Made by a program: the position numbers and the translations under genes | Part shown: piece after piece, positions 4,131 through 58,307 of the stretch | Layout: each line of letters opens with the position of its first letter | How positions within the stretch are numbered: position 1 is the stretch's first letter | Notes under the pieces: generated by a model | Seen by the model: only the letters and a program-made list of their open reading frames with translations | Database searches by the model: none | Told to the model about the DNA's origin: nothing | From: Hormiphora californensis | Lineage: Eukaryota; Animalia; Ctenophora | Length of the DNA: 64,000 nucleotides | NCBI GenBank assembly: GCA_020137815.1 | Contig: CM035351.1 | Span: 1,550,001 to 1,614,000, forward strand | Direction: 5' to 3'

Positions 4131-6607
4131 TTATGACAAGGGGGATTGAGAGATGTAATTTAGCAAATCCTGACAGGTGCAGGAAAATGATCAGCTACAC
4201 TGTGTCGTACAAGGGCAAACACTCCTACTATAACGGCCCCCATTAGATCACATAGTAACAGCGAGGGAGCTATAACACTGTAATATTTAATTACCTTCAA
4301 AGTTCGCCGGGTTAAGCTTTCCGCTGACAACTGAGAGAGAGAGAGAGATTGAGAGAATATAAGAGTAGGAAATTTCACAACCATTAAAATAAGTTTTTGC
4401 CATATTAGGAACAAAAAGTGCAAAGAGAAATACATGACCATTATTATATATCCATCATGATAAAAAGAAAAAAAATAAGGTGAGTGGTAGGGAACGAACA
4501 AACTTACTTCGAACGAACAAACTTACTTCGAACGAACAAACTTACTTAGCTTCGAACAAACTTACTTCGAACGCATAAATCTTGCATGTCAAGTGACCGT
4601 GACTACGATGGTTGGAACAACGTGTGACATCAGGATACACTAGGTCAATCAGAATACATTCCTTATAATGAAGATTTAGATTATTAGTTGATCTCGGCGG
4701 GCACCACATACAGTTAGCTGTAACACTAGTACAACTCTCTAACTCCCGCTGCTTCACGCAGACTCGGTGGCGTGCTGCCCACCAGCATTGGTGGCGAGCT
4801 ACCAAGTACTGCACCATTGCAGTAGCCCCCCCCCCCCCCCCCCCGGTAGGTGGATCACTTGTGTTGGTCATTGGCTCGTGTTTTACTATGCGTTTGAAGA
4901 TTAAAATAAACATTTCCTTTACAGTTATGGTCAGCATGTTTAGGAAATATGTTTAACTTGCTATGCACTCTTTTCCAACCATTGCTGAAATCTCATGTGT
5001 GCAGCAAAGGAAAACAACGCCGCTGGGGTAGTGATGTGTGTAGGTGATTGAATTGAGTATTTTACTGAACATTCGGGGACCCGTGCAAGCATCGTCTGGT
5101 CAATCATCTCAATTAATGATCCCCCGACACTCTGCACGCATGCAGTATGTTAATGCAGCCTATAATAATATACTGGCGGCAACTATTAATAATTGAAATG
5201 GCTAATAAATTCTAAGAAATCTTATTACATCATATGTACATAAATGCACCATTGCAAAAATATAGTTAAGAACATGATGCTCAAGCCCCGTCCTGATTAT
5301 AATCTGGGTGCCTTTAAGCCTGTTTTCAGATGTGTGCTACCAAAAAGAGTACCCTTGTACCGCGGATGAAGCAGGGACACATAACCACATGGCTAAGTTG
5401 AGTAAACAGTATCGGATAGATGTTCGATCGCACTTAGTAGTAGTGCGATTGATCATCACTAACCGATGACCCCAAAAATAGCCCTAATCAGACCCAAACA
5501 AGCAGCCCTAACGGCTAACGGCTAACGGCTAACCCGTCTGAACAATTTTCAGATTGAAAAGAAAAAGGAACACGACAAACGTGTGCCACCACCAACAGTC
5601 TATTAATGGTTAGCAGCGTGATGCATCCAGATCTTAACATTAGCCCTCGGGTGCTAACCCGGTAAAAAATCTGGCATATGCTGCAGGTTTTCAGATCCCC
5701 TGAGGAGGTTGGCATACGATGTAACTTGATGAAACTTGGTCCTTGGAAGTTGGAACGTGTTGCCAACTGATGAGGGTATGTCTCACGCAATTATACACGT
5801 GCCAAGTAAAAACTCAAAGTTGGCATATCTGTTATCTAAAACGAGCACACTGCGACCTAGGGGTCTCCCATGCATGCCAATTGCCAGATCAAGTCAAAAT
5901 TTTAAATTGGAAAATGCAGCTTGGATTTTAGTCTTTAGAATTGGCAAACGTTGCTGGGATAAGGGCGCGATTATAATCTGGGTGCCTTGCAGCCTGTTTA
6001 CAGGTGCGCGCTACCAAAAGAGTATACTTAGACCGACTTTTTTCAAACGGCTATAGCCATGGAACCACATGGCCGATTTGAGTAAACTAAACGGTATCAG
6101 TTAGAGAATCGATAGCCCTAACCGATAACCCCAAACCAAACCCTAACCAGACCCTAACGGATAGCCCTAACCCGTCGCGCGCGCCAAAACTACGAATTGT
6201 TAGCAATGAAAGGCACCCAGATTTTAACGTTTTCCCTGGGATAAGGCAGCGCTTTTCAAATTTTAGAAAAGTAAAATCTCTGAATTGAAATGTTATGAAA
6301 AATCTAAAATTTTACGAAAGAGCGATGCATTTGTCCAAAATTTACGTAACGCGCGGTATATTGTTGTCCATTTTGATGCGCGTGACACATATAATAATCA
6401 TGAATAGATAAGAATAAATTTTCGAAAAGTGTTCTTGGGAAAGTTTAAAATCTGAGTTTTTACTTTTTTGAGTGTCAGCAGACAGCAATCACGGTTTTAG
6501 TGTTAAAGTAGGGTTAGGGTTAGGGCTGGGTTTCGGACAAAACGCGGCAGACAATATATTATATTCGGTAGCGAATCTCTTTCACTCTTTACCGCACTGC
6601 TGGCATT

Positions 6608-6646
6608 TCAAACTTTTCAACACTACTTTAAACAAATTAATTTGAG
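6608..6646 (+). other. Ctenophore spliced-leader exon sequence (TCAAACTTTTCAACACTACTTTAAACAAATTAATTTGAG), not followed by GT
   Basis: Matches my recollection of Pleurobrachia-type SL; sits exactly at the 5' end of a TSD-flanked insertion. Confidence 0.8.
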
Positions 6647-6689
6647 CAACATGGCGATGTAACGGCCCCAAAGGGCAGAACGTAAGATA

Positions 6690-7652
6690 ATGGCAGACGA
6701 ACAACGAGAATTGGACTTTGCTGTAAGACGGATTCTGACGCTGGCCAAAAGTGGAGAGAGCTCTGTCGCTGGCAATGTCTTAAGAAAGTGCAGGAGCAGT
6801 CCAGATTTCAACGATGCTGAAATACCGTCATCAGTTAAAATCAGCTCTGTACACACGAAATATGAGCTACAACAACTGATTGAAGAAATGAGCTTCGCAA
6901 CCTTTATTGTTCTAAAACACTTTGAGCGTCATATCTTTGCCGAGAAATCCCCTGAGATGGTACTAAAAGAGGAGCGAGATGAACTCAAAGAGGAGCGAGA
7001 TGAACTGTTGAGAAAATCTGCCGAGTTGCAGGAGCAGGAGGAGAAGTTGAAAGTGGAGTGTGATGATCTTTTGAGAAGGACTGTCAAGTTACAAGAGCAG
7101 GTTATTGAGCTTCAGGGCGAGCAACTGCATCGAGTTACCGAGACGGTACAGAAAGATTTGCGTACTTTCTCTGCAGTCGTCACACAGAATTGTAAGACTG
7201 CGTTTGCATCGAAAAAGATCCAGAAAGCCGTGGAAAAGGTTACGCACAAGCCAGTAGATACCGGCCCAGACAGATCGAAAAATCTGATGGTGTTTGGTCT
7301 ACCGGAATGCGAGGGTGAAACTGAATCTGTGTTAAAGGGTGAAGTGGAAAATGTTTTTGCTGAGCTAGGCGAGAAACCGACCATAGAAGCTAGAAGGGTG
7401 GGTTTGAAACGGGGAGGAAGGGAGAGACCAGTGATTGTGAAGCTACAGAGTAGGGAAATGCTGCTGAGCCTTCTCCAGAAGGCAAAGCAGCTAAAACAGT
7501 TAGAATCGTACTGCGGTGTATATCTTGCAAGGGATATGTCCTTCGCAGAGAGAAGTGAGAGGAGAGAACTCCACCAAACGTTGAAGGAGTTGAGGGACTC
7601 GAATCCTGGAGGCCAATTCCGGGTACGGAGGGGGGTGATAGACTTTTCATAA
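6690..7652 (+). CDS. LINE ORF1-like protein (coiled coil + RRM-like/C-terminal domain), 320 aa, intact
   Basis: Heptad-rich E/K/L segment followed by RSKNLMVFGLPE ... RPVIVKL ... VYLARDMS..ER motifs typical of CR1/L2-type ORF1. Confidence 0.75.
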   Translation: MADEQRELDFAVRRILTLAKSGESSVAGNVLRKCRSSPDFNDAEIPSSVKISSVHTKYELQQLIEEMSFATFIVLKHFERHIFAEKSPEMVLKEERDELKEERDELLRKSAELQEQEEKLKVECDDLLRRTVKLQEQVIELQGEQLHRVTETVQKDLRTFSAVVTQNCKTAFASKKIQKAVEKVTHKPVDTGPDRSKNLMVFGLPECEGETESVLKGEVENVFAELGEKPTIEARRVGLKRGGRERPVIVKLQSREMLLSLLQKAKQLKQLESYCGVYLARDMSFAERSERRELHQTLKELRDSNPGGQFRVRRGVIDFS

Positions 7653-7923
7653 TAGGAATCTTCAATGAACTTTAATATCTATCGGTAACCCGTATTTGCC
7701 CACAAAAAAGGGGCTTATTTATACAATTAAATTGTGTAAATTATATAGATTTAATAATAATAATAATAAAAATGCTGGCATTAGCTGAGCCCTGAGTCTC
7801 TCAGTGAGGTGCCAGAAAGGACAAATGACACCGCGATATGTATTTCAATCAATCAATCAAAATGCTTAATCGGTGGGGCGTGGGCACCAGAGCACTCATA
7901 ACAGTGGTGACGATTTTACCATG

Positions 7924-8455
7924 TAGGATTTTATTATGCCTATAAGTTGTACCTGAAAACTTATAACACGAGACCGAAGGTCGAGTGTTATAAGTGCAAC
8001 AATAATGATCCGAGACCACAGGTCGAGGCAGATTCTTGTACTTTAGTGCACGAGCCTGCGAGTGCCACTAAGTGTAACTACCTCACGAGCCTGCGAGTGA
8101 TGTAGTTTTACTTTTTGACCGAGCCTGCGAGGTCTAAAAGTGTACGAATCTGGGACATTATTGTTGACGTCAGGTACAACGAAAATAGGCATAATAAAAT
8201 TGCATTGTAAAATTTTGAAAACAAGAGTGAGAGACACTTAGAGGGCGTAACAATAGAACGAATTCGTGATTTAAGGTAGCAGGCAGAGAATAGAGATATC
8301 AGTATAAGCATAAGATAACGCCTGAGATATATAATAGGTAAAGAGAGTGAGAGATTAGTGACAGTGAGAGAGATAAAGAATGTGTGGGACGTGGGTCCGG
8401 GAGTTCGTAACTGTTATCTTGATCTCGATGCTGCAACGGCGTGTGAGTGTGACAT

Positions 8456-8496
<41 letters not shown>

Positions 8497-8721
8497 GTAC
8501 ACCCTTATCTTTCTAAGTGTGACAGAAACAGTGGAGTGAGGAGTTCTAAGTGCAGCGGTGTTATAGCACTGGTTGTACAACTTATAACACTGCCCAGTGT
8601 TATAAGTGAAAACTTATAACACTGGGGGGTGTTATAAGTGAAAACTTATAACACTGGGCAGTGTTATAAGTTGTACAAGCAGTGATACCTAAAGATTTAC
8701 AGTATGTCCCAAAATTTTACA
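7924..8721. mobile_element. Non-autonomous insertion with ATG at both junctions, GC hairpins (CGAGACCGAAGGTCGAG) and an internal inverted copy of its joined ends; possibly Crypton/tyrosine-recombinase type
   Basis: Absent from paralogous site at 40121 (TTTTACC-ATG-CAACTTT); 8185-8217 is the reverse complement of right end + left end. Confidence 0.55.
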
Positions 8722-8743
8722 ATGCAACTTTTATCTGTTAGCC

Positions 8744-10898
8744 ATGCGATATAAACTAGCAACTGCTCTGGGTCTACTCTCTACAATTATATACTTTGAT
8801 GTGTGTTCAGACTACTACCACTCGATTGTCGAATACACAGATAAGGTTATCTGGCAACTCGGTCCAGAGGAAATCCTGATTCGAAATTACGACCGCCAAT
8901 TTTACTACCCGACTCCTGTTACTAAAAGTGTTTTCTTGGGATTTAACGGAAACATTGATGTTATATTAGAAGGTAAGATTTAGTAACATACTGCTCATCT
9001 CTAGTAGGCCGGATTAGCTTGTAATCCAGACTCTTGAAATTGTTACAATGTGGGAAAGAAACAAGGGGGATATTTTTGTTAGACTTACCAAGGATACGGT
9101 TTTTCAGGGCCCAAGTTTTTAAATGGTATTTCTTCTGAGGTACTGTCCGGTGAAGAGGATCTGCCCTCAATCAATTCGGTAAACCAGTTAAAGTCTACAT
9201 TCAACTACTTTTTCAAACGGCAAACGGCTGCAGAGAGATCTGTTGGATATCAGCCGGCATGGGAAGAAATTGTTCGACTGATAGAGGCTTTCCCAGAGAA
9301 GAGTTATTTTATTGGTGGTAATGCCGCCCTTATTGCTCGAACTATGAGTAAAAACGATGTTCAGGTATGTGGTTGGCCCAGTCTAAGGGCTTAAAAATGT
9401 ACGGTCCAGATTAGAGGGACGTATTTACATAATTCTATGCATATTACGATAAATGATACTAGGTTAAACTCTTCGTACCGTCTCCTCGATATACACGGCA
9501 CGACCATCGAACGGTTCAAATGATAGGAGAGGTTACCGGCCCGTGCCATCCAACATTCTCCTTTTTCAGATCAAGTTGGCCATTCCCTCGGGCCCAGAAC
9601 TTGTCTCACAGCTAGAAGAACACGGACTAACCGTAATGGAATCCTGCCTGAAAAGTAGGGACGAGTTTCACGTTATCCTAGAGGTGAACTTGAGTCCTAA
9701 CTCCAATAACTGTGTACTGTTGGTTTGTAATTGTTGTATATCAAATTCCCAGCTAATCCTTCTCTTTAACAGTATGGTGTTGGGTCTGTATACGAAGGGC
9801 ACACCAGTACCAGGGCGAACAGATTCATTTTCTCTCGGGATGTGGCTAACAGTGAAATGGATGCCATCAACTGCTTTACTAAAGGTACACTACTATACAG
9901 TCACTCACACACTGGTCTGTGAGGGTTCGGCAGACCAACACTACACAAGGCTGTACAAGCTGTTTATGTTGTTTAGATGGGACATCATTGAGGACAGGGT
10001 GTAACATTATCAAACTATCCAGGTGATTTGAGTGATGTAGATGTAGTGGTTATTGCAGGATTTCATATGTTGGAAAACCAGCCGGAATCAACAAAGCAAC
10101 AGGTAAACTACTATGTACTATGTAGTGATAGTTGAATGATGCTGTACTTATAAGTTAGTCACTAGTGTTGTTATTTACACTGCTCTGTATAATAACAGGT
10201 GTTAGGAAGTGTTCAAGAGAAGGTTCTGGAGCACCGTTTGGTGCACCTGGAGTTGGCCAGTATGACTAGAGCTGACTTCCTCTTAGAACTCTTCAATTCG
10301 CTTGCTGTCAGGTACAAAAAATTAATCACTACTCCCTGCCTCTTTCTATGCCTTTTTACAAGCTGTGTCCGTCGTCCTCGGTCCGGCGGGAGAGCTAATA
10401 AACGTGTAACATGTAGATATCTATCCCAGGGTCCACTCATTGGGGCTGAACGAGGCAGAGCTTGCTTTTCTCTCTGAGGTACTGGGTGGTCCACCTGTTA
10501 CAGAGTCTGTAGAAAGTGTGAAGGAGGCCCTGGTGTTCCTACTATCCAAAGCAACTGGAGGTCAACTATCCAGGATTCATTTTCACTGTCTTACATTCCA
10601 CGTTATAGTAGAGAAAACAGGTAATATGTGTTAGTGTTATTTGTCTTCTCACTCCCCTTCAATTTCTTTATTTCACTCTCTTTATCTCTCATCCTCTCTC
10701 CAGTGTCCCCTCTTTTTCTCTCGCCCTCTCTCCCTCTCTCCCCGTCATTCCTTGATCGTCAGGAAAATGGAAGAATGGTGCCACTGCTGTTGCTATTGGT
10801 ACACTAACAGCTGCAAAGTACGCATGTGACACCCCCAACCTGATACCAGATAACCACGAACTACGGTGGACAGGAGCTGGTTCTAAACCTGTCGTTAG
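8744..10898 (+). CDS. ADPGK: ADP-dependent glucokinase, copy 1 (8 exons; terminal GLGD exon not found, interrupted by Gypsy)
   Basis: N-terminal hydrophobic anchor, FLGFNGNIDVI, IGGNAALIA, HVILE, VHLELAS, SLGLNEAEL, RIHFHCL; GT-AG introns. Confidence 0.85.
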
Positions 10899-11623
10899 GT
10901 ATGTGGTGGGAGCTAGTTCTAAACCTGTCGTTAGGTAGGTGGTGGGAGCTGGTTCTAAACCTGTCGTTAGGTATGTGGTGGGAGCTGGTTCTAAACCTGT
11001 CGTTAGGTAGGTGGTGGGAGCTGGTTCTAAACCTGTCGTTAGGTATGTGTTGGGAGCTAGTTCTAAACCTGTCGTTAGGTAGGTGGTGGGAGCTGGTTCT
11101 AAACCTGTCGTTAGGTAGGTGGTGGGAGCTGGTTCTAAACCTGTCGTTAGGTAGGTGGTGGGAGCTGGTTCTAAACCTGTCGTTAGGTATGTGGTGGGAG
11201 CTGGTTCTAAACCTGTCGTTAGGTAGGTGGTGGGAGCTGGTTCTAAACCTGTCGTTAGGTAGGTGGTGGGAGCTAGTTCTAAACCTGTCGTTAGGTATGT
11301 GGTGGGAGCTGGTTCTAAACCTGTCGTTAGGTAGGTGGTGGGAGCTGGTTCTAAACCTGTCGTTAGGTAGGTGGTGGGAGCTGGTTCTAAACCTGTCGTT
11401 AGGTATGTGGTGGGAGCTGGTTCTAAACCTGTCGTTAGGTATGTGGTGGGAGCTGGTTCTAAACCTGTCGTTAGGTAGGTGGTGGGAGCTGGTTCTAAAC
11501 CTGTCGTTAGGTAGGTGGTGGGAGCTGGTTCTAAACCTGTCGTTAGGTATGTGGTGGGAGCTGGTTCTAAACCTGTCGTTAGGTATGTGGTGGGAGCTGG
11601 TTCTAAACCTGTCGTTAGGTATG
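10873..11623 (+). repeat. 36-bp tandem array (~21 units) = last 25 nt of ADPGK exon 8 + donor + 11 nt intron
   Basis: Unit GAGCT(G/A)GTTCTAAACCTGTCGTTAG|GTA(T/G)GTGGTGG. Confidence 0.95.
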
Positions 11624-11953
11624 GTGTAGTATCGGACGGAGGGCGCGAGATTTGGCAATCTCTGCTGCGCTGCAGCGCCGAGCACTGCAGCGCCGAGCGC
11701 TCCGTTCTGCTATTCCATCCTTTTTCCCAGGATCACGGTTTTAGATTCGGTCTTAGATTCAGTGAGTTTAGCAACAGTTCGGAAAAGGCAATCTAAAAAG
11801 AGTTACGTGTCCATTTATTTCTACATTTCATTCGGCCACGGAACCAAAGTCTTTTTATTCAGCAAAGGAGACGGCGAGGGAAAGAACCATTGGTATTCCC
11901 TCTTCGTCTCAGTTTCGGCTTTACTCTATCTGGTGGCTTCGGTCAAAGGTAGA

Positions 11954-13924
11954 ATGCCCCCAAGGAAGCGGAAGTATGCCGCACCTGTGAGAAAGTCTAA
12001 GCGTATCGCAGCAATGGCGAGTGAAGACATCACCTCACCCCTACGAACACCTCTGTCCGTAGTAGAAGAAGAGCGAGTTTTGGTTAGGGCTAATGTGTAC
12101 TCCAAAACTACCTCTGATTCTACCTCGAGCAAGGGTGATGAGAGAAGAACTACCGAGAAGAACGCAGAAACTATGCCTCTGTCCGTAGTAGAAGAAGAGC
12201 GAGTTTTGGTTAGGGCTAATGTGTACTCCAAAACTACCTCTGATTCTACCTCGAGTAAGGGTGATGAGAGAAGAACTACCGAGGAGAACGCAGAAACTAT
12301 GCCTCAGTCAGATAGCGGAGCGTTCGACTTCTTCTCGTTTATGGACAGTATGCCGGCGGTTCAGCAACCAGCTCCGTCCCACCGTGTTCCTTCGCCAGTC
12401 TACACTCCAGCAGCCAAGGGAGCGTTCCTGGGGGAAGACACCCTGCAGAGAAGTGACTCTTGTCGCGTGAGAGCCTTAAAGAAGGAATCTCGTGTCGAGA
12501 CGCCACTGCCTACAGTAAATTTGAAGGAGGCCGGGAAGTTGTTTGTCAGAGGAGCTACCATACCGTCCCCTCTCAGACCAGTATCAGCAGAAGACAGTGA
12601 AGAGGAAGAGGAACAGTATTGGTACGGCTATGTCGACGGAAGAGGATACCACCCCATGTCCGAGAAACAGGAGCAGACGTACAGAAATTTTCTCGCTCGC
12701 CAGAGGGCTGGTATGCCGTCCCAGATAGACGATCCTCCTCGTCCCGTCATCATTGATCCTAGAGGAGAGCCTATCCGACCTACACCGATTGCTAGGCGAG
12801 ATTGTAATCCGCGTCAGTTGGCTGTAGACAGCGATAGGGAGTCCGTGAGCACCGATACACTGTCTCGTGTACGGAGTGAACACCGTTACAGCAGGTTCCA
12901 GAAGATCAAGACACCGATCTACAAGTCAGGGGACGATTTTGATGTGTTCCTGATGAAGTTCCTGAAGTACCTGAAGCGGAGTAATGTTGCTTGGGTTGAG
13001 CTCGGAGAACATCTACTAGAAAGTATCGAGTGCAAAGACAAGTACAAGAGAGTGAACCGTCTGAAACTCTTGGGACCGGAGCAACGTGATCCTGATCTCT
13101 TGATCTCCGCAGTCCGTAGCGCTATTGTAGATAGTGTGAAGGATGAGGAAGCTGAGAGGAGGAAGCTCATGCAGATGAAGCAGGATACCGAGGAATCTGT
13201 AGAGGAGTTTGCAGATCGTATTCGTGAGGTGGCTGAATATGCCTTCCCTAGTGAAATAGATAGGGTGGTTAATCAGCGCATGATCGAAGCTCTTCAGGAC
13301 GGTCTAATAGACACCCGAGTGAGCGAACTAGTTTGTGATTTGAGGAGCTGCAATCTCAACTTCGACAAAGTAGTTGTACAAGCTGCTAAACGGGCGAAGA
13401 GAAACCAGATGTTCAGAGGGGATGTGTACAGAGATCCCGCTTCTACTTCTCCTCACTCGGACAATGTGTTCCGCATGACATCAAATGTCGTGGAAGACAA
13501 TGCTCCCAGTGCTCCAGCTCGTCAGACATCAGGGAATGCTCCAGCGAGTGTACCTCAGTGTTCCAAGTGCAACCAGAGAGGTCATGACGATGACAATTGT
13601 TGGGCTAGTATGACTTGTCAACTTTGTCGAGCTCATGGACATCCTGCTCACCGATGTGAAAGATTCAGAGGTCGGAATGGCAACTCGCGAGGAGGTAGGA
13701 ACTCGAACCCCACAACGAGGTCCGGAGGTGATCGTTCCAGTTCCTATCGAGGGTGTTATGAGTGTGGTGCTCTAGACCACCGAGTGGCACAGTGTCCAAT
13801 TAGAGCAAGGACTGTTCAATGCTATTCTTGTTACCAGTTTGGGCACCGAGCGGCGGAGTGTCCTCAATTTCAGGGAAACGGCGGGGCGATTGGAGGCTAC
13901 CCAGCAGCAACCGGTCGCCAGTGA
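11954..13924 (+). CDS. gag: Gag with four CCHC zinc knuckles and a 42-aa internal duplication
   Basis: Capsid-like region (Q..DTEESVEEFADRI), CSKC..GH....C, CQLC..HGH...C, CYEC..DH....C, CYSC..GH....C. Confidence 0.9.
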   Translation: MPPRKRKYAAPVRKSKRIAAMASEDITSPLRTPLSVVEEERVLVRANVYSKTTSDSTSSKGDERRTTEKNAETMPLSVVEEERVLVRANVYSKTTSDSTSSKGDERRTTEENAETMPQSDSGAFDFFSFMDSMPAVQQPAPSHRVPSPVYTPAAKGAFLGEDTLQRSDSCRVRALKKESRVETPLPTVNLKEAGKLFVRGATIPSPLRPVSAEDSEEEEEQYWYGYVDGRGYHPMSEKQEQTYRNFLARQRAGMPSQIDDPPRPVIIDPRGEPIRPTPIARRDCNPRQLAVDSDRESVSTDTLSRVRSEHRYSRFQKIKTPIYKSGDDFDVFLMKFLKYLKRSNVAWVELGEHLLESIECKDKYKRVNRLKLLGPEQRDPDLLISAVRSAIVDSVKDEEAERRKLMQMKQDTEESVEEFADRIREVAEYAFPSEIDRVVNQRMIEALQDGLIDTRVSELVCDLRSCNLNFDKVVVQAAKRAKRNQMFRGDVYRDPASTSPHSDNVFRMTSNVVEDNAPSAPARQTSGNAPASVPQCSKCNQRGHDDDNCWASMTCQLCRAHGHPAHRCERFRGRNGNSRGGRNSNPTTRSGGDRSSSYRGCYECGALDHRVAQCPIRARTVQCYSCYQFGHRAAECPQFQGNGGAIGGYPAATGRQ

Positions 13925-16900
13925 ACACTGTTACTAGAACGGATGTGGAGAGTGGAGAGAGGAGGAAGAACATAACAACTGTTTCACCTTCTCGATCCTT
14001 TGCTGCTGTTTGTTCTGAAGAAGTAACACCGCCCCAAGAGGAGAGTGTTGTGAAGAAGGTCGACAGCAGGGAACAGAAAACGTGTCAAGTTGTGATCGAG
14101 GGACAGATGGGAAAACACAGAGTCAGGGCATTTGTCGACTCTGGTTCTTCTATCAGTCTGGTATGTAAGCAGATAGTACAGCGGATGGGCATGCTCGACA
14201 GTATGGTTCCTACCAGTCGGAAGGTATTTGATTTCAGTGGGAATCCTATTTCTCTTCACGGTACTATCGATCTCAACTTCTCCGTGGGCACAAGGGTTAT
14301 TAATCAGTGCTTCGTGGTGTGTGGTTCAATGGATACGGAAGTGTTGCTGGGACATGACTTTCTTTCTGTTAACCATTGTTGTTTGGATTATGGTAGGGAG
14401 TTGTTTCTCCTTCCGGGAGGTGAGAGTGTTTCATTCGCTCCTCGGTTGAAGAATGTTGAGAAGTCGCACCTGATACGCGGGCTGCAGGGACAAGTAGTGC
14501 CACCTGATTCAATAGCCTACATTCAGGGTCGACTTCCACAGCATTTGAAATCGTGTGTGGGAATGATTACACCATTTGGAGCTGTTGGTGAGGATGGGTT
14601 ACTGGTGGCGAGTGCTGTAGCAGAGGGTAGAGATCAGAAGGTGACCCTGAAGGTGATCAACATCTCATGCCATCCAGTGTCTATCCGAAACAAGCAGGTT
14701 TTGGGTAGATTTGGTCCCATTCCAGAGTACAGGCCAATATCAGGAGTACAATGGGCGGACCAGGACAGTGTTGTGAACAAGATCTCAATAGATGTTCATG
14801 AACGCTGGACAAGAGAGGAGCTTTTCGACAGACTTGGTCTGGCTAAACGGCAAGGGCCGGATATGACCGAGGAAGAAGAAGGCCAGCTCAGGGAGATTTT
14901 ATGGAAGTACAGGGATGTTTTCAGTTATGATGAGTATGATATTGGATGTTCCAATATGTACACTGCTGAAATCCGTTTGAAAGAGGGGGCACAACCCTGC
15001 TGGGCAAACCCTTTCCCTGTTCCTTATAAGTTGCGTGACGAGATGGATAGAAACATCGAGAAGATGAAGGAGGCGGGAGTAGTGGAGGAGTTACAGGAGC
15101 CCTCAGACTGGAATTCTCCTATTTTCTTGGTGAAGAAGAAGACAGCAGGATCTTGGAGGTTAGTAGCTGACCTGAGGTGTGTGAACAAGGAGTGTGTGGG
15201 CGATAGCTATCCACTTCCCAACCTGAATCATGTTTTGGATAGTATTGGAGGGGATTCGATATTCTCGAGCTTTGATCTGTCCAAGGGATTCTGGCAAGTC
15301 CCGTACACACAAGAATCGAAAAAGGTAACAGCTTTTCTTCATCGTGGTCGTCAATTATGTTTCGCTAGGATGCTGATGGGACACAAAACATCGAGTTCCA
15401 AGTTCACTAGGATGATGGAGAAATTGTTAGGCACCTTGCCAATTGAACAGGTTATTTATTTTGTGGATGATGTGTTTCTCTCGTCCAAAACTGTGTCCTG
15501 AACATCTAACACGTTTGGATAGACTTTTAAACCGTTTCCAAACAGCTAATCTCAAGATATCTCCCGGGAAGACAGAGTTGTTGAAGAAGGAGGTGGAGTT
15601 TGTGGGGATCTCTATCAGCGGTAAGGGTGTCAGCATCACTGATGATAGAGTTAAATCCCTGACATCTCTCCCAGCTCCAAAGTCGAGGAAGGAAGTAAGT
15701 GAAGTACTAGGTGCGTTCAATTACATTCGAAAGTGGGTAAAAGGGTTCAGTTCAATTACCAAGCCGCTCCATAACATCCTATCAGGACCGAAGAGTCGTC
15801 CCTTTGTGTGGTCTGCTGAGTGTGACAGGGCATACAACCACTTGAAAGAGTTGGTGTGTGAAAAGACCACCCTGTCTATACCCGATCCTGACGACCCTTT
15901 TCAGAGCTATGAGGTGACTGTAGATGCCAGTATGGATGGTTATGGTGCCACTTTATCTCAGGAGTTAATGTGTGATGACGTGAGAGAGCGGAAAATAATC
16001 GCCTTTTATAGCAAGAGTGTTCCCAACTACAAGCGTGCTCGAGGTCAGACGAGGTTGGAGTTTGACGCTATGGTAGCAGCTCTGGAGAATTGGAAAGTAT
16101 ATCTGATGAACACGAAGTTTACTGTGGTAACGGATTGTAAGAGTCTGCTGTCAGCTGAGGACTCTCTGTTTGCCAAGTCGGACCCTACTATCATCCGTAA
16201 GGTTCAGTTACTTGCAAATTATGATTTCGAAATCCGTCATATTGCGGGTGAAACTAACACTCTTGCTGATTTTCTCTCCCGTTTTCCCTTTCGTCGTAGT
16301 AAAACAGATACAGGTACTCAGACAGAGGAGAAGCACACGATTCCTAGAATCGTGCTTCCTTCACCGTGCGATAACCTGGTGCGGGTAGGGTGTAGTGGTT
16401 CATCACTGAGCGCTACATCAGACCCTGCAGATACTCGAGATGGTGTTGGGTGTAGTGGTTCTTCACAGAGCGCTACATCAAACACTGCAGATACTCGAGA
16501 TGGTGTTGGGTGTAGTGGTTCTTCACAGAGCGCTACATCAAACACTGCAGATACTCGAGATGAGATTCCTGTTCTCAGATCGAGTAGTGATGAGGAGGTG
16601 GAGGAGTTGTGTGGGGAAGATCAACCTACACGTGTGCAATCTGACGATATATCAGAGTTGGGGAGTGAGCAGCAGTCGGTCAACAATCTCATCTCACGGG
16701 GTGATGTGACTGACGTTGTTATCAACCAGTTACACGGGGTGCCGGATATCAGGGGAAGTATTTGTGAGGACGAGATTTCTCTCGTTTTGGAAAATCCACA
16801 ATTTCTTACTGATGGTGTTCCCGTTATATTGGAAGATGCAGAGGGAATAAATGTTGGTGAGAAGGGCACTGAGGCGGATGGAGCTTGTGATACAGATCAT

Positions 16901-18385
16901 TTTGGATTTGGTTGGCTCGATTCCTGCAATGAAAGTGAGGTCCATCACCAGACCATTTACCACGTTGAACCTAGTTGTTGGTGTACCGCCAAACCAGCTA
17001 GCACGGTTCCAGAGGTGCTGGAGGTGAATGCGATTTTTGATATTCCTGATGGGGGAGGACAGTTATTAGACTGGAGAGAGTGGGAAACTGCGCAGAAAGA
17101 GGACGATATATTTCTAGTGGTGAGGAATTGGGTGATCCAGGGCTCGCGAGACGTCGTGCAAGCTAACAGGACCCCTACTGAACTGATGTCATTGTGGAAA
17201 CAGTTCAATTTGCTTCGTGTGGAGGACGGAGTACTGCAGAGGAGGTGGAATTTTACATCAACAGGAGAAGACAGGTGGCTGATCCTTGTTCCACCGGATA
17301 AGAGAGAGTTAGTGATGAACAGATGCCATGGTGATCTTTGCGGACATGCCGGAGTGGAAAACACTCAGCTTTGTTTGCGGAGGTGGTACTATTGGCCAGG
17401 GATGGAGAGTGATGTGAAGGAGTTCGTTGCAGCGTGTGTTAACTGTGGGTCCAACAAACAACCCAGGGCCTACGGGAGAGCTCCAATGGCGAGAATGATG
17501 TTCCACCATTTCAATGATGCCATCATTATCGACCACATTGTTCCTCAGAGGAAAGGGAACACACCTCGAAGGAACAATGCAATCCTCACCATCTCAGACG
17601 CCTGGTCCAACTTTGTAATTGCTGTACCGGTGAAATCCCAGACCAGTGAGGAGAACAGAAGAACTATCCTTGAGAGTTGGGTGTACCGTATGGGGTGGCC
17701 ACGTGAGATAATATGCGACAATCACCAGGGGTTCCGAGGCGCCCAGTTTAGAAGATTCTTCGAAATCCATGGTGTTAAGTTAACATATGGAACAGCTTAC
17801 AAGGCGGCCAGTACAGCGAGAGCGGAGATGAACAACAAACGTACCAACACTGTTCTGAGGGCCACACTTCATCAAATGTGTCCTCGAAATTGGGATCTCC
17901 ATCTTGCCAAGGTATCCTTTGTTCTAAACTGTTTGAAAAACAGAAGGACCGGTTACACAGCTAACAGATTGGTGTATGGGCGTGAGTTGAATGTTCCAGA
18001 GATGCTCATGTTGGATAGAGGTGGTGATTCCGAACAGAGTAGTGAGCCGAATTTGTCTGCTGAGATATATAGAAGCTCCAAGGAACTGCGGGATATCTCC
18101 AGGAGGGTGAGGAAGAACATGGACACAGACTGGGGGTATGCCAAGAGATCATACGACAAGAAATGTCATGATCCAGGGTACTCTGCAGGAGATCAGGTGT
18201 TTGTGAGGATAAATTGTCCAGCTCACAAGTTTGGAGCTCGTTGGAATGGCCCATTCTTGGTGAAGAGAGTATTGAACCCTTACCTTTACATGTGCAAAAT
18301 CAGCAACAGAGGACAATGTGATCAATCTCCCCGAAGTGAAGTTTACCGAAAGAAGCAGGCAGGTGAAAACACGGGGGTCAAGTGA
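13873..18385 (+). CDS. pol: Pol (aspartic protease FVDSGS, RT with FVDD, RNase H, HHCC + DDE integrase); -1 frameshift from gag; extra frameshift near 15497
   Basis: ORFs 13819-15501 and 15443-18385; motifs WNSPIFLV, FDLSKGFWQ, VDAS, TDCKSL, LADFLSR, H..GH...C..C, ICDN. Confidence 0.9.
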
Positions 18386-34435: not shown

Positions 34436-36269
34436 CGAAGAAGGACAAGAAATTATAAGCCGTCATCAAGTGATCAATCATCACATGAATTGACAGGTCC
34501 TGCAGGACTGATTCAATCACTCCGCAAACAATCGATGAAGTGATATTCATACATCATGAATTCGCGCGCTACTTCGGTTGCGCAGAGCAGTGCACACACA
34601 ATTTCCTCGCGCGTTGATGGTGTTTCCATCTGGTATATTTCCTCGATACCCCCCCTCCGTTAACATGTGATAAACGCGCAAAACAATTCCGCGCACGACT
34701 TTGGGGGGTGAACAGTTGAAAAAATGGAGTATAGCCCTCGAGTGCTAACCCGGTAAATTTTTTTTTCATATGCTGCAGGTTTTCAGATCCCCTGAGGAGG
34801 TTGGCATACGATGTAACTTGATGAAACTTGGTCCTTGGAACGCGTTGCCAACTGATGAGGGTATGCCTCACGTGCCAAGTAAAAACTCAAAGTTGGCATA
34901 AAGTCGAATTTTTTAATCAAGGTACAGGGGGCCGCGCATTCAGAGAGGTCGCGCGGCGTTGTATTTGCGTGTGACAATCGAGATCAAGTTCCTGGCAATC
35001 TTAAGACTTGAACCCGGAAGCGTTGGAAAGATAATTTTAAGACCTTTTCAACGCAACCAAGATCAAGTCTTTATCTTATCAGGAAGAGAAGATATGAGCG
35101 AAAACATTTAGCACGCGCAAAAATACTTTGTAAATGCGCGGCCCCCTGCCCCTTGATTAAAAAATTCGACTATATCTGTTATCTAAAACGAGCACACTGT
35201 GGCCTAGGGGTCTTCCATGCATGCCAATTGCTTGGCCTATGCTACAGGCCCTAGAAGCCGTGGAAAACGCGCGCACTTGGGGTCTGCAGCGCATGCCAAG
35301 CCAATTGCCAGATCAAGTCAAAATTTTAAATTGGAAATTGCAGCTTGGATTTTAGAAAAGTAAAATCTTTGAAATGTTATGAAAAATCTAAAATTTTACG
35401 AAAGAGCGATGCATTTGTCCAAAATATACGTAACGCGCGGTATTATTGTTTCTTTGAGGTCCATTTTGATGCGCGTGAACACATATCATGAATAGAATAA
35501 ATTTTCGAAAAGTGTTTTTGGGAAAGTTAAAAAAGTTTTTACTTTTTTGAGTGTCAGTTGGAATGCGCTGCAGCCCCCTCATGCGCGCACCCCCGCAACG
35601 AGGGGACTGAAGGGAATGCCGCGCGCGCGTTTGGCCTGAGCTCAGGACGGGCCCGGCTGGGTCGAAGATAACTTTGCGAGCGAAAAAACGGCGGTGCTTA
35701 TAACTTTGGCCCCTGAAGTCCGTTTGACTTGATTCTTTCACTAGCTGTTAGATCTGACAATTATCTACCTTGCTGTTTTTGAGAGAAGTAAATTGGACTT
35801 CAGGAAGCTGAGCAATAGCCGTTCAAAGATTGGTTGTTTTCAAAAAGTGACGTCACAGATCCCTGCAGGGACACTTTGTTTCAAATTTGAATTAAAATCT
35901 CGAATTTTTTTATTTTACCGCACTCGATTTTGCGGAGTTTGGTTCATATCTCCTGTTCCTGATAAGATAGAGACCTGAAACCGGTTGCATTTGAAAGCTG
36001 TTATCTTCCTCTTTCCAACGCTACCAAAACGATTTTTGTACCTTAACTGGAACCGGAGATATGATTGATTATGTATTCCCCCCCTAGCGCGGTATTCCCT
36101 CCAGGCCCCTTATATTATATTATAAGGGGCCTGCAACGTATGCCAAGAGTGTCAGCAGCCAGCTATCACGGTTTTAGACTTTAGTGTTAAAGTAGGGTTA
36201 GGGCTGGGTTTCGGACAAAACCCGGCAGACAATGAAATGTAATATATATATATTATATTCGGTAGCGAA

Positions 36270-36886
36270 CCTGCCGTTTTACCCACCGTAAAGTCTGCAG
36301 AAAATTCAAACTGTACGGATCTCACTCACGCCATGGGTGTAAGTTGGGTGCAAAGTGCTCAAAACTGCATCCAAAATTATGTGAGGGCTCACAGCGGAGA
36401 ATGAAGGAGCGGCAGTGCCTAAACCCTGATTGCCCACATCTCCACCTCAAGGGTACACGAAGGAAAGTGGAAAACCCTGAAAGGAGAGAACGTCAGGAAG
36501 TTGTTAGGACAACACAGCAACCTAACACTCACGCCACTGACCACAGAGAGAGAGTGCAGGATGAACAACTCCCTCTTAGCGGCTCACCATTGCGACCAGT
36601 TTCGCAGCAAAACCCTGGACACTTACAATCGGGTTTTCTGAGCATTGTTTTGAAGGAGGTCAGGAATGCCAGAGAAGAATCACTGAGGCAAGCGGACAGA
36701 ATGGAAGAAATTCTCTCCCAGCTTGGTCCAACCCACAACGAGTCGATGCTGCACAACCAGCTGGCCCACCACTTACAAGCACACCCGCCAGTACAGTACA
36801 CTCTACCCACAGGAATATCAATGACTCAAGGAGTACATCGGCAACTACCGACCCAAATACTGCCCTCTCAAAGATTATCCTACTAA
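36270..36886 (+). CDS. LINE ORF1 C-terminal part with CCCH-type zinc fingers
   Basis: CRKFKLYG...GCKLGAKCSKLHPKLC...CLNPDCPHLH. Confidence 0.7.
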
Positions 36887-39876
36887 ACGGGAGAAGTATT
36901 TCACCGGCCGCTGGGGGGAACACTCGGTGGAAACTCCCCTTCATCGAGGCTGTTTTGCTCAACAACCCAAACTCACCGCCGACAGTTGCCCTTGCAATAA
37001 CTGAGTCATGGTTGAAAAACTACATTGCAGACGCCCAAATCAAAATGCAGGGATACAGCACCTTCCGTTCTGACCGTCCTGATCGGAAAGGAGGAGGTTG
37101 TGTGTTATACATTCGTGAAGACATCCCAATCAGCTATGCATACTCATTCAGTGACCGGGAATGCAGTCTGGTATTGGCTTTTAGTAAAGCTAAAAACATG
37201 TTGTTTTCATGTATCTACCGTCCCCCCGAATCATCTGACCAGTCCTTCATCACAGTTATGAACGATCTCCAAGATAAAATTGATCTCCTGTCCAATGAAA
37301 GGAGCCCTGAAATGTTTATCATGGGCGATCTAAACTTGCCGTTGTTCAACTGGAAAGAAGAATCCCTACCGTCAGCTGCTGCTAACATAGCAGCTTATCA
37401 ACGAACGGTGAACTTCATCGAGGAAAACTTCCTGACTCAGGTCGTTGACAAACCAACCAGGGGCAATAATATTCTGGATGTTATAATGACCAACTCACCA
37501 CAATACGTATCAACTGTGACAACTGAAGAGACAAAGATCTCTGACCACAGAATAGTTGACTGTACCCTGGTGATAAACCCCCTTATGAAGACAGCAGATA
37601 CCATCAAAAAGTGGGACCACATGAGTTTTCGAGGATTGGACATTCCAAAAGCCAATTTTGAAGAAATGAATGTGGACATTGCTTCTGTTGACTGGGACAA
37701 ACTGCAGACATTATGTGAAGAGTCTGGAGACCCTGTTGGTGACAAATTCAAAGAACTTTTCATTCTAACTGTTCTGCAAATCACCATCAAGCACACCCCT
37801 CAGAAGATTCAGCGGAGAAAATTCAGCCCCCTGGAACCACTGAGAAGGAGAAGGCGGAAGTTAAAAGCAAGACTTGGAGCAATTTCCTCTGTCAACGTTA
37901 ACATCTCAAAAACTGAAGAACTCCAAGACGAACTCACAGCACTTGAGGACAAGATACAGAACGCTGTAGATGAATCAATCGAAAAGAAGGAACACAGCGC
38001 CATTAAGACGATCAAGGCGAACCCACGATATTTCTTCTCCTACGCTAAACGACTTTCAAAAGTTAAATCTAACATCGCCCCCCTCAAACGTGATGACGGA
38101 ACACTCACCACGGACAATACTGAAAAAGCGGAACTCCTGCAAAAGCAGTACTGCCGTGCCTTCAGTGATCCAGACGGGGGAGACTTGCTGAAAAGTCTCT
38201 CTTGGGTAGAGGATAGCAATACGATTTTAGAGGATTTCATTTTTACATCAGAGGACATCAAAGGAGCTCTCTCTGAGCTTGATCCTGCTTCTGCCGGACC
38301 AGATGGTGACATCCCTGCTAAAATTCTCAGTGCTTGTAAAACCACCCTCGCTGTACCACTCTTTCTTCTTTGGGAGCGGTCTTTCGAGGAAGGAATAACA
38401 CCCCCTAACCTGAAAAAACAATACATCACACCAATCTTCAAGCGTGGTGATAAAACTCTGGCTGTTAACTACCGCCCTGTTTCGCTGACTTCTAACTTGC
38501 TAAAAACGTTTGAGCGAGTTGTACGAAATAAGTTAGTGGAACACCTGGAAAGTAACAATCTCCTACCAGACAGCCAACATGGATTTAGGAAGCAACGGAG
38601 CTGTCTCACACAACTACTCGATCACATGGATGGAATTTTTCGAGAGTTAAACAGTGGAAATGAAGTCGATGTTATCTATTTGGACTATTCCAAAGCCTTC
38701 GACCGTGTCAACCACACCATTCTCATTGCCAAGCTGGAAAAGCTAGGTATTAGAGGGAAAGTACTAAAGTGGATAAAAGACTTCCTTACTGGCCGGTATC
38801 AAACAGTAACCGTCGACGGAGAAAAATCGAACTTTGAGCTTGTCAAAAGTGGGGTACCTCAAGGAACCGTACTTGGACCAATCCTCTTTATCATCTACGT
38901 AGCTGATCTCCAGAGCCAAGTGATCCACAGCAAAATCAGAACCTTTGCGGATGACACCAAGCTCCAGAAGAGCGTCGACTCGGAAGAATCAGGAGCAGAA
39001 ATGCAAGAGGATCTTCAGCGTGTGGTGGAGTGGTCTGCAGCCAATTGTATGACACTCCATGAGGACAAGTTCGAGGTCATCCACTACACTCTGAACAGAA
39101 CGTCCCTTCTCAGAGAACTCCCTTTCACTCATGAGTTAAGCTTATATGTGACTCCAGGTGATAACGAAATACAGCCAAAGGATACAGTGAAAGACCTTGG
39201 CATCACCCTCTCAAACAATGGCTCCTGGACAGACCATGTAATGAGGATTTCATCAGAAGCACGACGGATGGCCGCCTGGGCACTGAGAGCTTTTAAGGAT
39301 AGGTCAGTAACCACTATGCTGACACTCTACAAGTCACTAATAAGGTGCAAAGTAGAGTACTGCTCACCTCTGTGGTCGCCCTACAAGATTGGTGACATTC
39401 AGGCTCTGGAAAGCATCCAGAGACAGTTTACACGACGGATCGAAGACATGGCACAACTTGACTATTGGGAGCGGCTGAAAAAGCTAAGACTTATGTCATT
39501 ACAACGTCGGCGGGAGCGATATTCGATAATACAAATGTGGAAAATCTATAATGGTGCAGCACCTAATAGCACGAATACCCGGTTTTACCATCATCAACGG
39601 CTCGGCGTCCGAGCCGAAGTACCTACTCTTTACAGTGGAGCACAGAAGTCATTCTCAACAAAATACTTCCATTCATTTGCTGTAAGGGCCGCTCGGCTAT
39701 GGAACACATTGCCGAAAGAGGTTAACACAGCAGCGACCTTAGATACGTTCAAGATCCTGCTGGGCCGTTGGCTGGACCACTTCCCTGACAATCCACCTGT
39801 GAAGGGTTATTCTACCCGGAACAACAATTCTATCATGGACTGGGTTTTGGAGGTTCGAGCTAAAGGGGGATGCTGA
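36565..39876 (+). CDS. LINE ORF2: APE endonuclease + reverse transcriptase
   Basis: LLNGRSI, AITESWL, GGGC, IYRPP, GDLN, SDH; YLDYSKAFD, GVPQG, FADD; frame open from 36565. Confidence 0.92.
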
Positions 39877-40142
39877 AAAGACTGACACCGTTTACGATTC
39901 TGTAATGAAGTTTATTTATCAAGTTTATCAAGTTTATCAAGAATCTCTTTCACTCTTTACCGCGCTGCTAGCATTAGCTGAGCCCTGAGTCTCTCAGTGA
40001 CTAGTGAGATGTCAGAAAGGACAAATGACACCGTGATATGTATTTCAATCAATCAATTAACATGCTTAATCGGTGGGGCGTGGGCACCAGAGCACTCATA
40101 ACAGTGGTGACGATTTTACCATGCAACTTTTATCTGTTAGCC

Positions 40143-44719
<4,577 letters not shown>

Positions 44720-51348: not shown

Positions 51349-51431
<83 letters not shown>

Positions 51432-56981: not shown

Positions 56982-58307
56982 CTTTAAACAAACAAACAAA
57001 TTAATTTGAGTTTCAGCAACATGGCGATGTAACGGCCCCAAAGGGCAGAACGTAAGATAATGGCAGACGAACAACGAGAATTGGACTTTGCTGTAAGACG
57101 GATTCTGACGCTGGCCAAAAGTGGAGAGAGCTCTGTCGCTGGCAATGTCTTAAAAAAGTGCAGGAGCAGTCCAGATTTCAACGATGCTGAAATACCGTCA
57201 TCAGTTAAAATCAACTCTGTACACACGAAATATGAGCTAAAGCAACTGATTGAAGAAATGAGCTTTGCAACGTTTATTGTTCTAAAACACTTTGAGCGTC
57301 ATATCTTTGCCGAGAAATCCCCTGAGATGGTACTCAAAGAGGAGCGAGATGAACTCAAAGAGGAGCGAGATGAACTGTTGAGAAAATCTCTCGAGTTGCA
57401 GGAGCAGGAGGAGAAGTTGAAAGTGGAGTGTGATGATCTTTTGAGAAGAACTGTCAAGTTACAAGAGCAGGTTATTGAGCTTCAGGGCGAGCAACTGAAT
57501 CGAGTTACCGAGACGGTACAGAAAGATTTGCGTACTTTCTCTGCAGTCGTCACACAGAATTGTAAGACTGCGTTTGCATCGAAAAAGATCCAGAAAGCCG
57601 TGGAAAAGGTCACGCACAAGCCAGTTGATACCGGCCCAGACAGATCGAAAAATCTGATGGTGTTTGGTCTACCGGAATGTGAGGATGAAACTGAATCTGT
57701 GTTAAAGGGTGAAGTGGAAAATGTTTTTGCTGAGCTAGGCGAGAAACCGACCATAGAAGCTAGAAGGGTGGGTTTGAAACGGGGAGGAAGGGAGAGACCA
57801 GTGATTGTGAAGCTACAGTCTACATATCCCTTGCAAGATATACACCGCAGTACGATTCTAACTGTTTTAGCTGCTTTGCCTTCTGGAGAAGGCTCAGCAG
57901 CATTTCCCTACTCTGAGAGTAGGGAAATGCTTGTATTGTTCATACTATTATTTTTTTAATAAGGGCGCGGGGGAGGTGCAACAGCACAAGGAAATGCTGC
58001 TGAGCCTTCTCCAGAAGGCAAAGCAGCTAAAACAGTTAGAATCGTACTGCGGTGTATATCTTGCAAGGGATATGTCCTTCGCAGAGAGAAGTGAGAGGAG
58101 AGAACTCCACCAAACGTTGAAGGAGTTGAGGGACTCGAATCCTGGAGGCCAATTCCGGGTACGGAGGGGGGTGATAGACTTTTCATAATGGGTATCTTCA
58201 ATGAACTTTAATATCTATCGGTAACCCGTATTTGCCCACAAAAAAGGGGCTTATTTATACAATCAAATTGTGTAAATTATATAGATTTAATAATAATATA
58301 AAAAAAA
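56982..58307 (+). mobile_element. SL-capped ORF1-only retroelement, copy 2 (ORF disrupted at ~57819-57990)
   Basis: High identity to 6608-7772; starts with CTTTAAAC(AAAC)2AAATTAATTTGAG then TTTCAG; A-rich tail. Confidence 0.85.

Follow-up and report, generated by a model that had tools for sequence, protein, structure and literature searches.

The window, a 64,000-nt stretch of DNA from the ctenophore Hormiphora californensis, was found to carry two copies (A and B) of an element with a spliced-leader (SL) head, both in sense orientation and shortly upstream of host coding starts. Copy A is an insert of ~1.2 kb. The features of the two copies and of the corresponding empty site are as follows:

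6598..6607, plus strand: left target site duplication (TSD) of copy A, 10 bp, the final two bases of which (TT) are also the first two of the 41 SL nucleotides (microhomology)
6606..6646, plus strand: SL head of copy A, the last 41 of the 44 nt of the published ctenophore SL, ending on the final AG of the SL exon with no GT next
6647..6689, plus strand: 5' UTR with a three-codon uORF (6651–6662) in frame with ORF1; uORF start and stop are kept in copy B and in the diverged copy L001
6690..7652, plus strand: ORF1, 320 aa, with N-terminal helices, coiled coil (88–170), RRM (198–281) and C-terminal domain in the predicted fold; under purifying selection
7653..7751, plus strand: 3' UTR with two hairpins (7698–7714, 7717–7741) predicted by folding and compared across three copies
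7752..7772, plus strand: tail, (TAA)6 followed by AAA
7773..7782, plus strand: right TSD, identical to the left 10-mer
39966..39975, plus strand: empty target site in a paralogous segment; the ADP-glucokinase ATG (40143) lies 168 bp downstream of it
56994..58307, plus strand: copy B, with the last 17 nt of the SL (56994–57010), TTTCAG (57011–57016), the same body as copy A and a 171-bp rearrangement

A preliminary description had proposed a 1.17-kb insertion with a perfect 10-bp TSD, a (TAA)n/A tail and an empty site at ~39966, and all three hold. The TSD 10-mers are identical, and the stop codon is followed by 120 nt of UTR and tail (six TAA units, then AAA) and then by the right TSD. The left flank (6573–6607) differs from the paralogue (39941–39975) at 2 of 35 positions, and the right flank (7783–7923) agrees with the continuation of the paralogue match at 136 positions and differs at 5. 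The paralogue, which is an insert-free part of a duplicated ADP-glucokinase region and not an allele of copy A, has the target 10-mer as a single copy with 1 mismatch. The SL of copy A lies inside the TSD-bounded insert and is absent from the empty paralogue. Elements of the NeSL, SLACS and CRE type, which also adjoin SL sequence in the genome, encode a reverse transcriptase (RT) and an endonuclease (restriction-like in NeSL and SLACS) and insert into SL RNA genes. Such an element is ruled out at this locus by the lack of an RT or restriction-like endonuclease and by a target without SL sequence, in keeping with the distinction drawn earlier from NeSL/SLACS.

The head of copy A was matched by eye to the 44-nt leader printed in PMC8527503. 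As had been claimed, its 39-mer (6608–6646) is identical to the published Hormiphora leader and is not followed by GT. The 39-mer occurs once in the window and in 0 of 100 shuffles; as the claim would require, unrelated contigs of RNA run X11 (oligo-dT) also carry it at an end. An SL RNA gene is ruled out by the missing GT donor, the incomplete exon and the 1.1-kb coding body behind the SL; an Rfam search of the window gave no match. In H. californensis, at least 56% of Iso-Seq reads bear the SL (PMC8527503), and 718 genomic SL copies have been reported.

Copy B went unnoticed in the earlier reading. It is 97.5–98.4% identical to copy A and ends 375 bp upstream of the ATG (58682) of a JmjC gene on the same strand; its ORF1 is broken by the rearrangement (57819–57989), which is mostly an inverted duplicate. 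A diverged copy with flanks unlike those of A and B was identified on a metagenome contig (L001). Copy B and L001 share an SL remnant, TTTCAG, a short uORF, ORF1, a 3' hairpin and a TAA-rich tail. The TSD is clear at one of the three copies (A); copy B has a possible 6-bp TSD, ambiguous within an AAAC repeat, and at L001 no candidate repeat exceeds 5 bases and none is in register. The three loci differ in their flanks and tails.

The SL remnants are free of mismatches (41/41 nt in copy A, 17/17 in copy B and 38/38 in L001) within unrelated flanks. All three heads begin within the SL, with no shared sequence beyond its 5' end; continuation of copies into shared upstream sequence, which would have spoken against the proposal, was looked for and is not seen in copy B or L001. 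The bases after the SL are CA in copy A and TT in copy B and L001, a GT donor being present in none. The acceptor-like hexamer TTTCAG follows the SL in copy B and L001 and is absent between SL and 5' UTR in copy A. As this hexamer difference ends in AG, the two junction types fit the use of alternative acceptors. Slip between near-tandem hexamers could also account for the hexamer difference.

Between copy A and L001 the SL shows 0 changes in 38 positions, against a base difference of 17% in the ORFs and 12.5% in the adjacent 5' UTR (chance of no change 9e-4 and 6e-3, respectively). The 3'-terminal 50 nt are nearly as conserved, so that constraint at the DNA level could also explain the unchanged SL. 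This bears on the possibility that the SL was captured once and now acts as a DNA-encoded, SINE-style internal promoter, the element copying its own SL without re-splicing in each cycle. A promoter role has been proposed, in the part of the source compared, for the SL relics of dinoflagellate retrogenes (PMC6050394), snRNA-derived heads are described in the pertinent part of the SINEU study (PMC4494074), and conservation is also seen in non-coding regions of the element outside the SL. However, all three heads are clipped at the 5' end (3 nt lost in A, 6 nt in L001 and ~27 nt in B), a loss by which a self-copied head would be eroded, and the junction exists in two AG-bounded variants. A single capture is accordingly considered unlikely.

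ORF1 of copy A is intact. Searches of Pfam with this ORF, 14 aligned members and 25 further hits found no ORF1 family, and a sequence search of the PDB with ORF1 found nothing, so that the identity of ORF1 rests on its fold. When the predicted structure was compared using Foldseek, the top 11 matches were all human LINE-1 ORF1p (best E 2.3e-6), and the product is predicted on this basis to be LINE-1 ORF1p-like. Every one of the Atlas matches of ORF1 was below 0.9. The comparison of dN/dS across copies, as envisaged in the preliminary description, gave 0.25 for A versus B (8 synonymous and 7 non-synonymous changes, p 0.008; synonymous distance 3.8%) and 0.27 for A versus L001 (dS 0.48). Judged from these substitutions, ORF1 is under purifying selection.

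No ORF2 (EN/RT) was found behind ORF1 in copy A, copy B or L001, and the longest stop-free run in any plus-strand frame of 7653–8500 of the window is 64 codons. Together with the 320-aa ORF and its predicted fold, this bears out the claim of an intact LINE-ORF1-like ORF without RT. Sense-strand EN/RT was likewise not found downstream of the ORF at any of 14 loci; for 8 of these, which represent 4 distinct sites, the downstream sequence is at least 650 bp long. Contigs of close relatives (n = 39), the lengths of which are biased by assembly and by the requirement for a whole ORF, have a median of 1237 nt, with 27 of the 39 within 1.0–1.5 kb and the longest at 3122 nt. The copies could in principle be processed RNA of an autonomous LINE from which ORF2 was spliced out, with a full LINE of the same ORF1 and 3' end as the source. 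Selection on ORF1 and the LINE-type 3' end would both be accounted for in this way, but the close-relative contigs do not extend past ~3.1 kb, EN/RT is missing behind the ORF at the 14 loci and no longer fused protein was found among 7995 candidates (a weak search). This explanation is thought very unlikely.

The 11-bp stem of the second 3' hairpin (7717–7741) is invariant, and one loop base is different in all three copies. Compared with shuffles the 3' hairpins are not significant (z −1.8), no compensatory change was seen in the conserved stem across the three copies, and a search of viral contigs with the 3'-end motif gave 0 matches. A LINE in the window (36266–39941, APE+RT) was set aside as an obvious partner, having another ORF1, another tail and no 3' UTR similarity; no partner LINE was found in the window or at the 14 loci.

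The relatives of ORF1 fall into 11 protein clusters with 55–98% identity; the ORF1 tree was built rapidly and served solely to display the subfamilies. The SL was absent from 13 of 14 metagenome loci, namely the distant ones (31–36% identity). In Pleurobrachia bachei, four gene models were found to belong to the SL-headed ORF1-only family or its wider kin, two of them fused ahead of unrelated genes (a Par6-type PB1/PDZ gene and PSF3).

At the RNA level, no contig of X11, the RNA run covered, connects SL and element body; the body is represented there by just two 151-nt pieces at a depth of 2. Read mapping covered the copy A region. In run X3, a single contig spans 6670–6723; its first base is at SL position 6626, and like copy B it contains an extra 6 nt. 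In X1, X3 and X5 the body depth is far above the flank depth, although summed depth is not a copy number and library types are unrecorded. Neither junction of copy A is bridged among the contigs listed, and X5 has no depth at 7750–7857 among the rows listed, as might be expected if a cDNA had been built into the genome assembly. Such an artefact is scarcely credible in view of the TSD, the empty paralogue, copy B with a rearrangement of its own and an independent metagenome contig with other flanks.

X1, X3 and X5 also contain sequences that begin with the SL, have no GT after it and are unrelated to the element, and retrocopying in general may be common. The copies might be dead-end retrocopies, their parents being a small family of host genes that arose by domestication of a LINE ORF1 (L1TD1-like), with an SL present because most ctenophore mRNAs have one. 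The high share of SL-bearing Iso-Seq reads, a dN/dS below 1, which fits host genes as well, and an A–B synonymous distance near the published heterozygosity of 2–3% are all compatible with this. It is nonetheless judged improbable, as the copies end in a TAA-repeat tail with a conserved 3' hairpin instead of plain poly(A), many subfamilies share one layout and insertions occur at several unrelated loci, two of them within 51 kb.

It is probable, in our assessment, that these sequences represent a family of SL-headed, ORF1-only, non-autonomous non-LTR elements in a pleurobrachiid comb jelly, likely re-capped with the SL in each cycle and likely supplied with RT in trans by a LINE. A copy would first be transcribed, probably from a host promoter whose transcripts read through it, because each of the two window copies has a host coding start shortly downstream in the same orientation. 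As the junctions suggest, the SL would then be spliced onto an AG at the front of the element (the final AG of the old remnant or TTTCAG 6 nt on), which would restore a complete capped 5' end even for a copy with a clipped head. ORF1p is predicted to be made and to coat the element RNA, and the ORF2p of the partner LINE would recognize the hairpin and the TAA tail at the 3' end and prime reverse transcription at a nick. Integration would produce the TSD and cost the head between a few and 27 nt of the SL, as is seen in the anatomy of the copies. The element may need no promoter of its own. It is conceivable, though on balance doubtful, that it is a promoterless element dependent on SL trans-splicing, which lands in outrons immediately upstream of host genes and is then the leading cistron of an operon-like transcript, from which it is cut out and SL-capped, its own acceptor being carried along since the final AG motif of the SL resembles an acceptor. 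If so, trans-splicing would be the counterpart of the L1 internal promoter or of the R2/L1Tc self-cleaving ribozyme, and the downstream host gene would be spared.

To our knowledge, a problem that all non-LTR elements have to solve is how to restore a complete 5' end, the known solutions being internal promoters and ribozymes. Host trans-splicing, likely used by the SL-headed family, would be a third. The family bears on the repeated origin of SL trans-splicing and on whether trans-splicing helps selfish elements, and may account for part of the 718 genomic SL copies. Selection on ORF1 without ORF2 raises the question of a role of ORF1p for its own RNA in cis. In practical terms, the P. bachei fusions to Par6-type and PSF3 genes are corrupted gene models.

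Among known systems, SINEU elements also have spliceosomal small-RNA heads (U1/U2 snRNA) that were repeatedly added; as far as the pertinent part of the source goes, they are non-coding, with variable junctions and heads credited to template switching, whereas the ctenophore junction lies at the SL exon end (PMC4494074). A SINE with a small-RNA head was rejected as a classification, the body here being an intact ORF under purifying selection. In dinoflagellates a 5' SL remnant similarly marks retroposed trans-spliced mRNA, but the retrogenes treated in the part compared are host genes with relics that can stack in tandem, while in the ctenophore element relics are not stacked, and what is carried is an ORF1 and a 3' end of LINE type (PMC6050394). 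Use of the host SL machinery by TE RNAs, as proposed here, is described for Hydra, in which ~30% of TE Iso-Seq reads are SL trans-spliced (PMC12220107), and for Cer1 transcripts of C. elegans (PMC3315495). Both cases, in the sections compared, concern the RNA level only, and trans-splicing at the site concerned does not occur in the full-length 8-kb Cer1 RNA, which leaves the SL outside the element (PMC3315495). In flatworms, 597 loci have a partial leader adjoining LTR/LINE elements (PMC12582326) and six SL exons are merged to TEs (PMC5832876), with the same proposed origin by reintegration of trans-spliced retrotransposon RNA. The passages concerned mention such loci in passing: they give no TSDs, empty sites or tests of selection and do not describe the anatomy of a family, and in one of the two papers chimeric assembly is considered possible (PMC12582326, PMC5832876). 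The novelty of the general idea is lowered by these passing suggestions, and the SL-headed family is a defined, testable case of what was merely remarked on in flatworms and Hydra. No description of the SL-headed, ORF1-only combination was found in the literature; the supplements of PMC8527503 and Derelle et al. (2010), which lay outside the comparison, may bear on this point. ORF1-only LINEs and SLs on TE transcripts or loci have each been published, and their combination appears new.

HAL1 (half-L1) of mammals retains the promoter UTR of L1 along with poly(A), and the tail of L1 is poly(A), unlike the TAA tail of the present family. HAL1 resembles the ctenophore element in coding for an ORF1p-type protein alone, in the lack of RT, in TSD with tail and in multiple copies; it differs, according to the part of the source compared, in being derived from L1, whereas the ctenophore element has an SL head, a 5' UTR of 43–49 nt and a TAA tail (PMC5753468). 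No candidate for an L1-clade parent with shared termini was found in the window or at the 14 loci. The single ORF1p-type ORF, the absence of ORF2 and interspersed copies with marks of retroposition, by which a HAL1-type element is recognized, are all found in the ctenophore element, which works like HAL1 but is not filed as HAL1.

The ORF1-only insertion headed by the spliced leader (SL), termed copy A, was found to consist of the following parts:

6608-7772, plus strand: copy A insert, flanked by identical 10-mers
6598-6607 and 7773-7782: the two 10-mers, identical, forming the TSD
6690-7652, plus strand: ORF1, 320 aa, intact

Downstream of the ORF stop lie a 99-nt UTR and a tail of six TAA units plus AAA, and the element is 1167 nt in length in this copy. 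The preliminary description of a TSD-bounded insertion with an intact ORF and no RT holds throughout: the 10-bp repeats are identical, the ORF is unbroken and no ORF2 lies behind it, every plus-strand frame in 7653-8500 being open for at most 64 codons. The empty site which it had placed in the paralogous locus is also present, as the target 10-mer occurs there once (39966-39975, one mismatch), with the empty and filled paralogues sharing 33 of 35 bases upstream and 136 of 141 aligned bases downstream. In sequencing run X5, one contig stops exactly at 6607 and depth is zero over 7750-7857. A three-codon uORF (6651-6662), in frame with ORF1, retains its start and stop in a copy at dS 0.48 and may dampen ORF1 translation.

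The SL of Hormiphora californensis is 44 nt long, with 56% of Iso-Seq reads carrying it and 718 genomic occurrences, according to PMC8527503. Window positions 6606-6646 are, by eye, identical to the last 41 nt of this published leader (PMC8527503), confirming a match that had been proposed; the first two of these bases are also the last bases of the left TSD. The 39-mer of the head is present at a single position in the window, and none of 100 shuffles contained it. It is directly followed by CA and not GT, and is therefore not an SL RNA gene, as had been argued. The SL also stands at the ends of unrelated RNA contigs, with at least five contigs (317-414 nt) of the oligo-dT RNA run X11 carrying it no more than 2 nt from an end, followed by unrelated sequence. 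All four runs compared (X1, X3, X5, and X11, of 24) have a depth spike in the SL bin. For X1, X3, and X5, with library type unrecorded, GT-initial sequence is the commonest continuation after the SL, as expected for SL RNA genes, and the SL is followed by C into mixed sequence in 15, 5, and 9 contigs, respectively. These three runs, guessed to be DNA, have the SL at 6606-6647 followed by unrelated non-GT sequence; should they be DNA, the genome may commonly contain SL-headed retrocopies of other transcripts.

Evidence for a family was drawn from the window and from protein collections, as well as from contigs of metagenomes and sequencing runs. The second window copy, copy B, has two features:

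56994-58307: copy B, with the last 17 nt of the SL, TTTCAG and the same body as copy A
57819-57989: internal 171-bp rearrangement, comprising a 94-bp perfect inverted duplicate of adjacent ORF and about 60 bp of other sequence

Copy B is 97.5–98.4% identical to copy A, and its rearrangement resembles the product of a template switch. Scanning of metagenome contigs yielded 14 loci, of which only L001 is close (76% amino-acid identity). Its head has 38 of 38 SL bases and then TTTCAG. Its body retains the uORF start and stop of copy A, the ORF is complete, the 3′ end is that of the other copies and the tail has eight TAA units; its flanks are unrelated to those of copies A and B. These three copies belong to one family. 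As anticipated, the heads of copy B (17 nt) and L001 (38 nt) also begin within the SL and run to its final base. ORF1 is under selection, with dN/dS of 0.25 between copies A and B (319 codons; 8 synonymous and 7 non-synonymous changes; p 0.008) and 0.27 between copy A and L001 (83% identical, dS 0.48, dN 0.13; 313 codons). In run X3, the sole contig spanning 6670-6723 begins inside the SL at 6626, has six inserted letters and shares with copy B a substitution at 6784, from which we infer the SL-TTTCAG form.

A protein search returned 13 clusters, 11 at 55–98% identity, and close homologues are found among Pleurobrachia bachei gene models, which points to a pleurobrachiid ctenophore as host. 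Contigs of 10 of the 13 clusters (leaving out two contig-less rows and 12 rows of two distant clusters) numbered 39, with an assembly-biased median of 1237 nt, near the 1167-nt element length; 27 of the 39 are 1.0–1.5 kb and the longest is 3122 nt. The 13 other metagenome loci (31–36% identity; five representing one site) have no match to the Hormiphora SL, and sense-strand EN/RT was found downstream at 0 of 14 loci with the window LINE ORF2 as query, room of at least 650 bp existing at eight (four distinct sites). The ORF1-only layout may therefore have a broader distribution than the SL head, and such elements may be widespread in the lineage. Eight loci (L004-L008, L010, L013, and L014) hold ORF1 relatives at 31–36% identity with neither sense ORF2 downstream nor Hormiphora SL; at L004 and L006-L008, ORF1 and an RT fragment are arranged head to head.

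The ORF protein of copy A had no match in Pfam, nor in PDB by sequence. An AlphaFold model built on a 14-sequence alignment (mean pLDDT 77.5, pTM 0.36) predicts a coiled coil (88-170), an RRM pattern (198-281) and a C-terminal helix and hairpin. In Foldseek, human LINE-1 ORF1p entries take all of the top 11 places, with a best E of 2.3e-6, and the first generic RRMs appear at E 1.5e-3. By predicted fold the protein is thus a LINE ORF1p, in support of the LINE-ORF1-like assignment made earlier. Atlas matches, all below 0.9, are leads only; 260 representatives with E up to 1e-30 were retrieved by profile search, and among the matches listed most span about 200–340 aa.

The surroundings of the two window copies are as follows:

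5641-10700 and 34732-42090: segmental duplication with an ADP-dependent glucokinase gene, about 96% identical
10873-11626 and 42478-44491: 36/72-bp tandem arrays, one after each duplicate segment
7924-8713: about 790 bp made up of palindromic repeats, in the filled paralogue only, between copy A and the glucokinase ATG; very high depth in X1, X3, and X5
36266-39941, plus strand: near full-length LINE with APE and RT domains, a Cys/His-rich ORF1 remnant and a 9-bp repeat tail
11630-18382, plus strand: LTR retrotransposon with zinc knuckle, protease, RT, RNase H and integrase in three long frames
45841-48339, minus strand: two related ORFs in tandem (245 and 402 codons), 75% DNA identity, no Pfam match
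48774-62766, plus strand: THOC1, JmjC/Cupin_8, SVIP and a weak PAH match, copy B lying within

The last is a possible operon-like cluster, and the repeats at 7924-8713 are probably nested MITE-like elements. The window LINE does not qualify as an obvious partner, as its ORF1 and tail differ and no 3′ UTR is shared. It was inserted into the paralogue with the empty site, about 25 bp 5′ of the position that copy A fills in the other, the two being independent retro-insertions into one short region upstream of ADP-glucokinase. The empty site is 168 bp upstream of the glucokinase ATG, which lies immediately 3′ of a pyrimidine-rich AG, and 375 bp separate the end of copy B from the JmjC-gene ATG downstream, both on the same strand as the gene. 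Sense placement upstream of host genes, with these two unbiased cases, is a lead and not a result. No host gene was found in the short flanks of L001. Two P. bachei gene models have an ORF of the family or its wider kin fused ahead of PB1/PDZ (Par6-type) and PSF3 domains, a biased sample because gene fusions reveal sense insertions only.

The element would be transcribed by read-through and its RNA SL trans-spliced, a partner LINE supplying EN/RT and recognizing the 3′ hairpin and TAA tail. What speaks most strongly for re-splicing in each cycle is that the SL is unchanged across dS 0.48 (0 of 38 changes between copy A and L001; chance 9e-4 if the SL diverged as the ORF did, 6e-3 if as the 5′ UTR did) and that heads are clipped in all three copies. 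The 3′ UTR is conserved nearly as well over its final 50 nt, so constraint at the DNA level is a possible reason for the unchanged SL. Under re-splicing, the AG of an old SL remnant and TTTCAG would be alternative acceptors, copy A having used TTTCAG; this hexamer difference could also have arisen by slippage. In run X11, no RNA contig linked SL to element body, and the body itself was represented by just two pieces at depth 2. Comparison of the 3′ hairpins with shuffles gives z -1.8, the conserved stem lacks a compensatory pair, and the TSD is clear in only one of three copies. That the element is promoterless, living in outrons and dependent on trans-splicing, is a tentative suggestion which we consider somewhat improbable.

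The observation is real and now has stronger support than sequence alone could give. Neither an SL-headed ORF1-only family nor the present ctenophore element was described in the literature covered, outside which lay Repbase and, largely, subscription papers. TE transcripts are reported to acquire SLs in Hydra (PMC12220107), as are Cer1 transcripts in C. elegans (PMC3315495), and genomic SL-TE junctions with the same proposed origin are noted in flatworms (PMC12582326, PMC5832876). SINEs with snRNA heads exist (PMC4494074), and a ribozyme parallel for retroelement 5′ ends is drawn (PMC4035085). ORF1-only LINE derivatives are known, such as HAL1 (PMC5753468); the element works alike, yet is not classed as a HAL1 member as defined. 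Likewise, dinoflagellates are well known to have SL-relic retrogenes, for which a promoter role of the relic has been proposed (PMC6050394), and the element arises alike, yet is not classed as one of them as defined.
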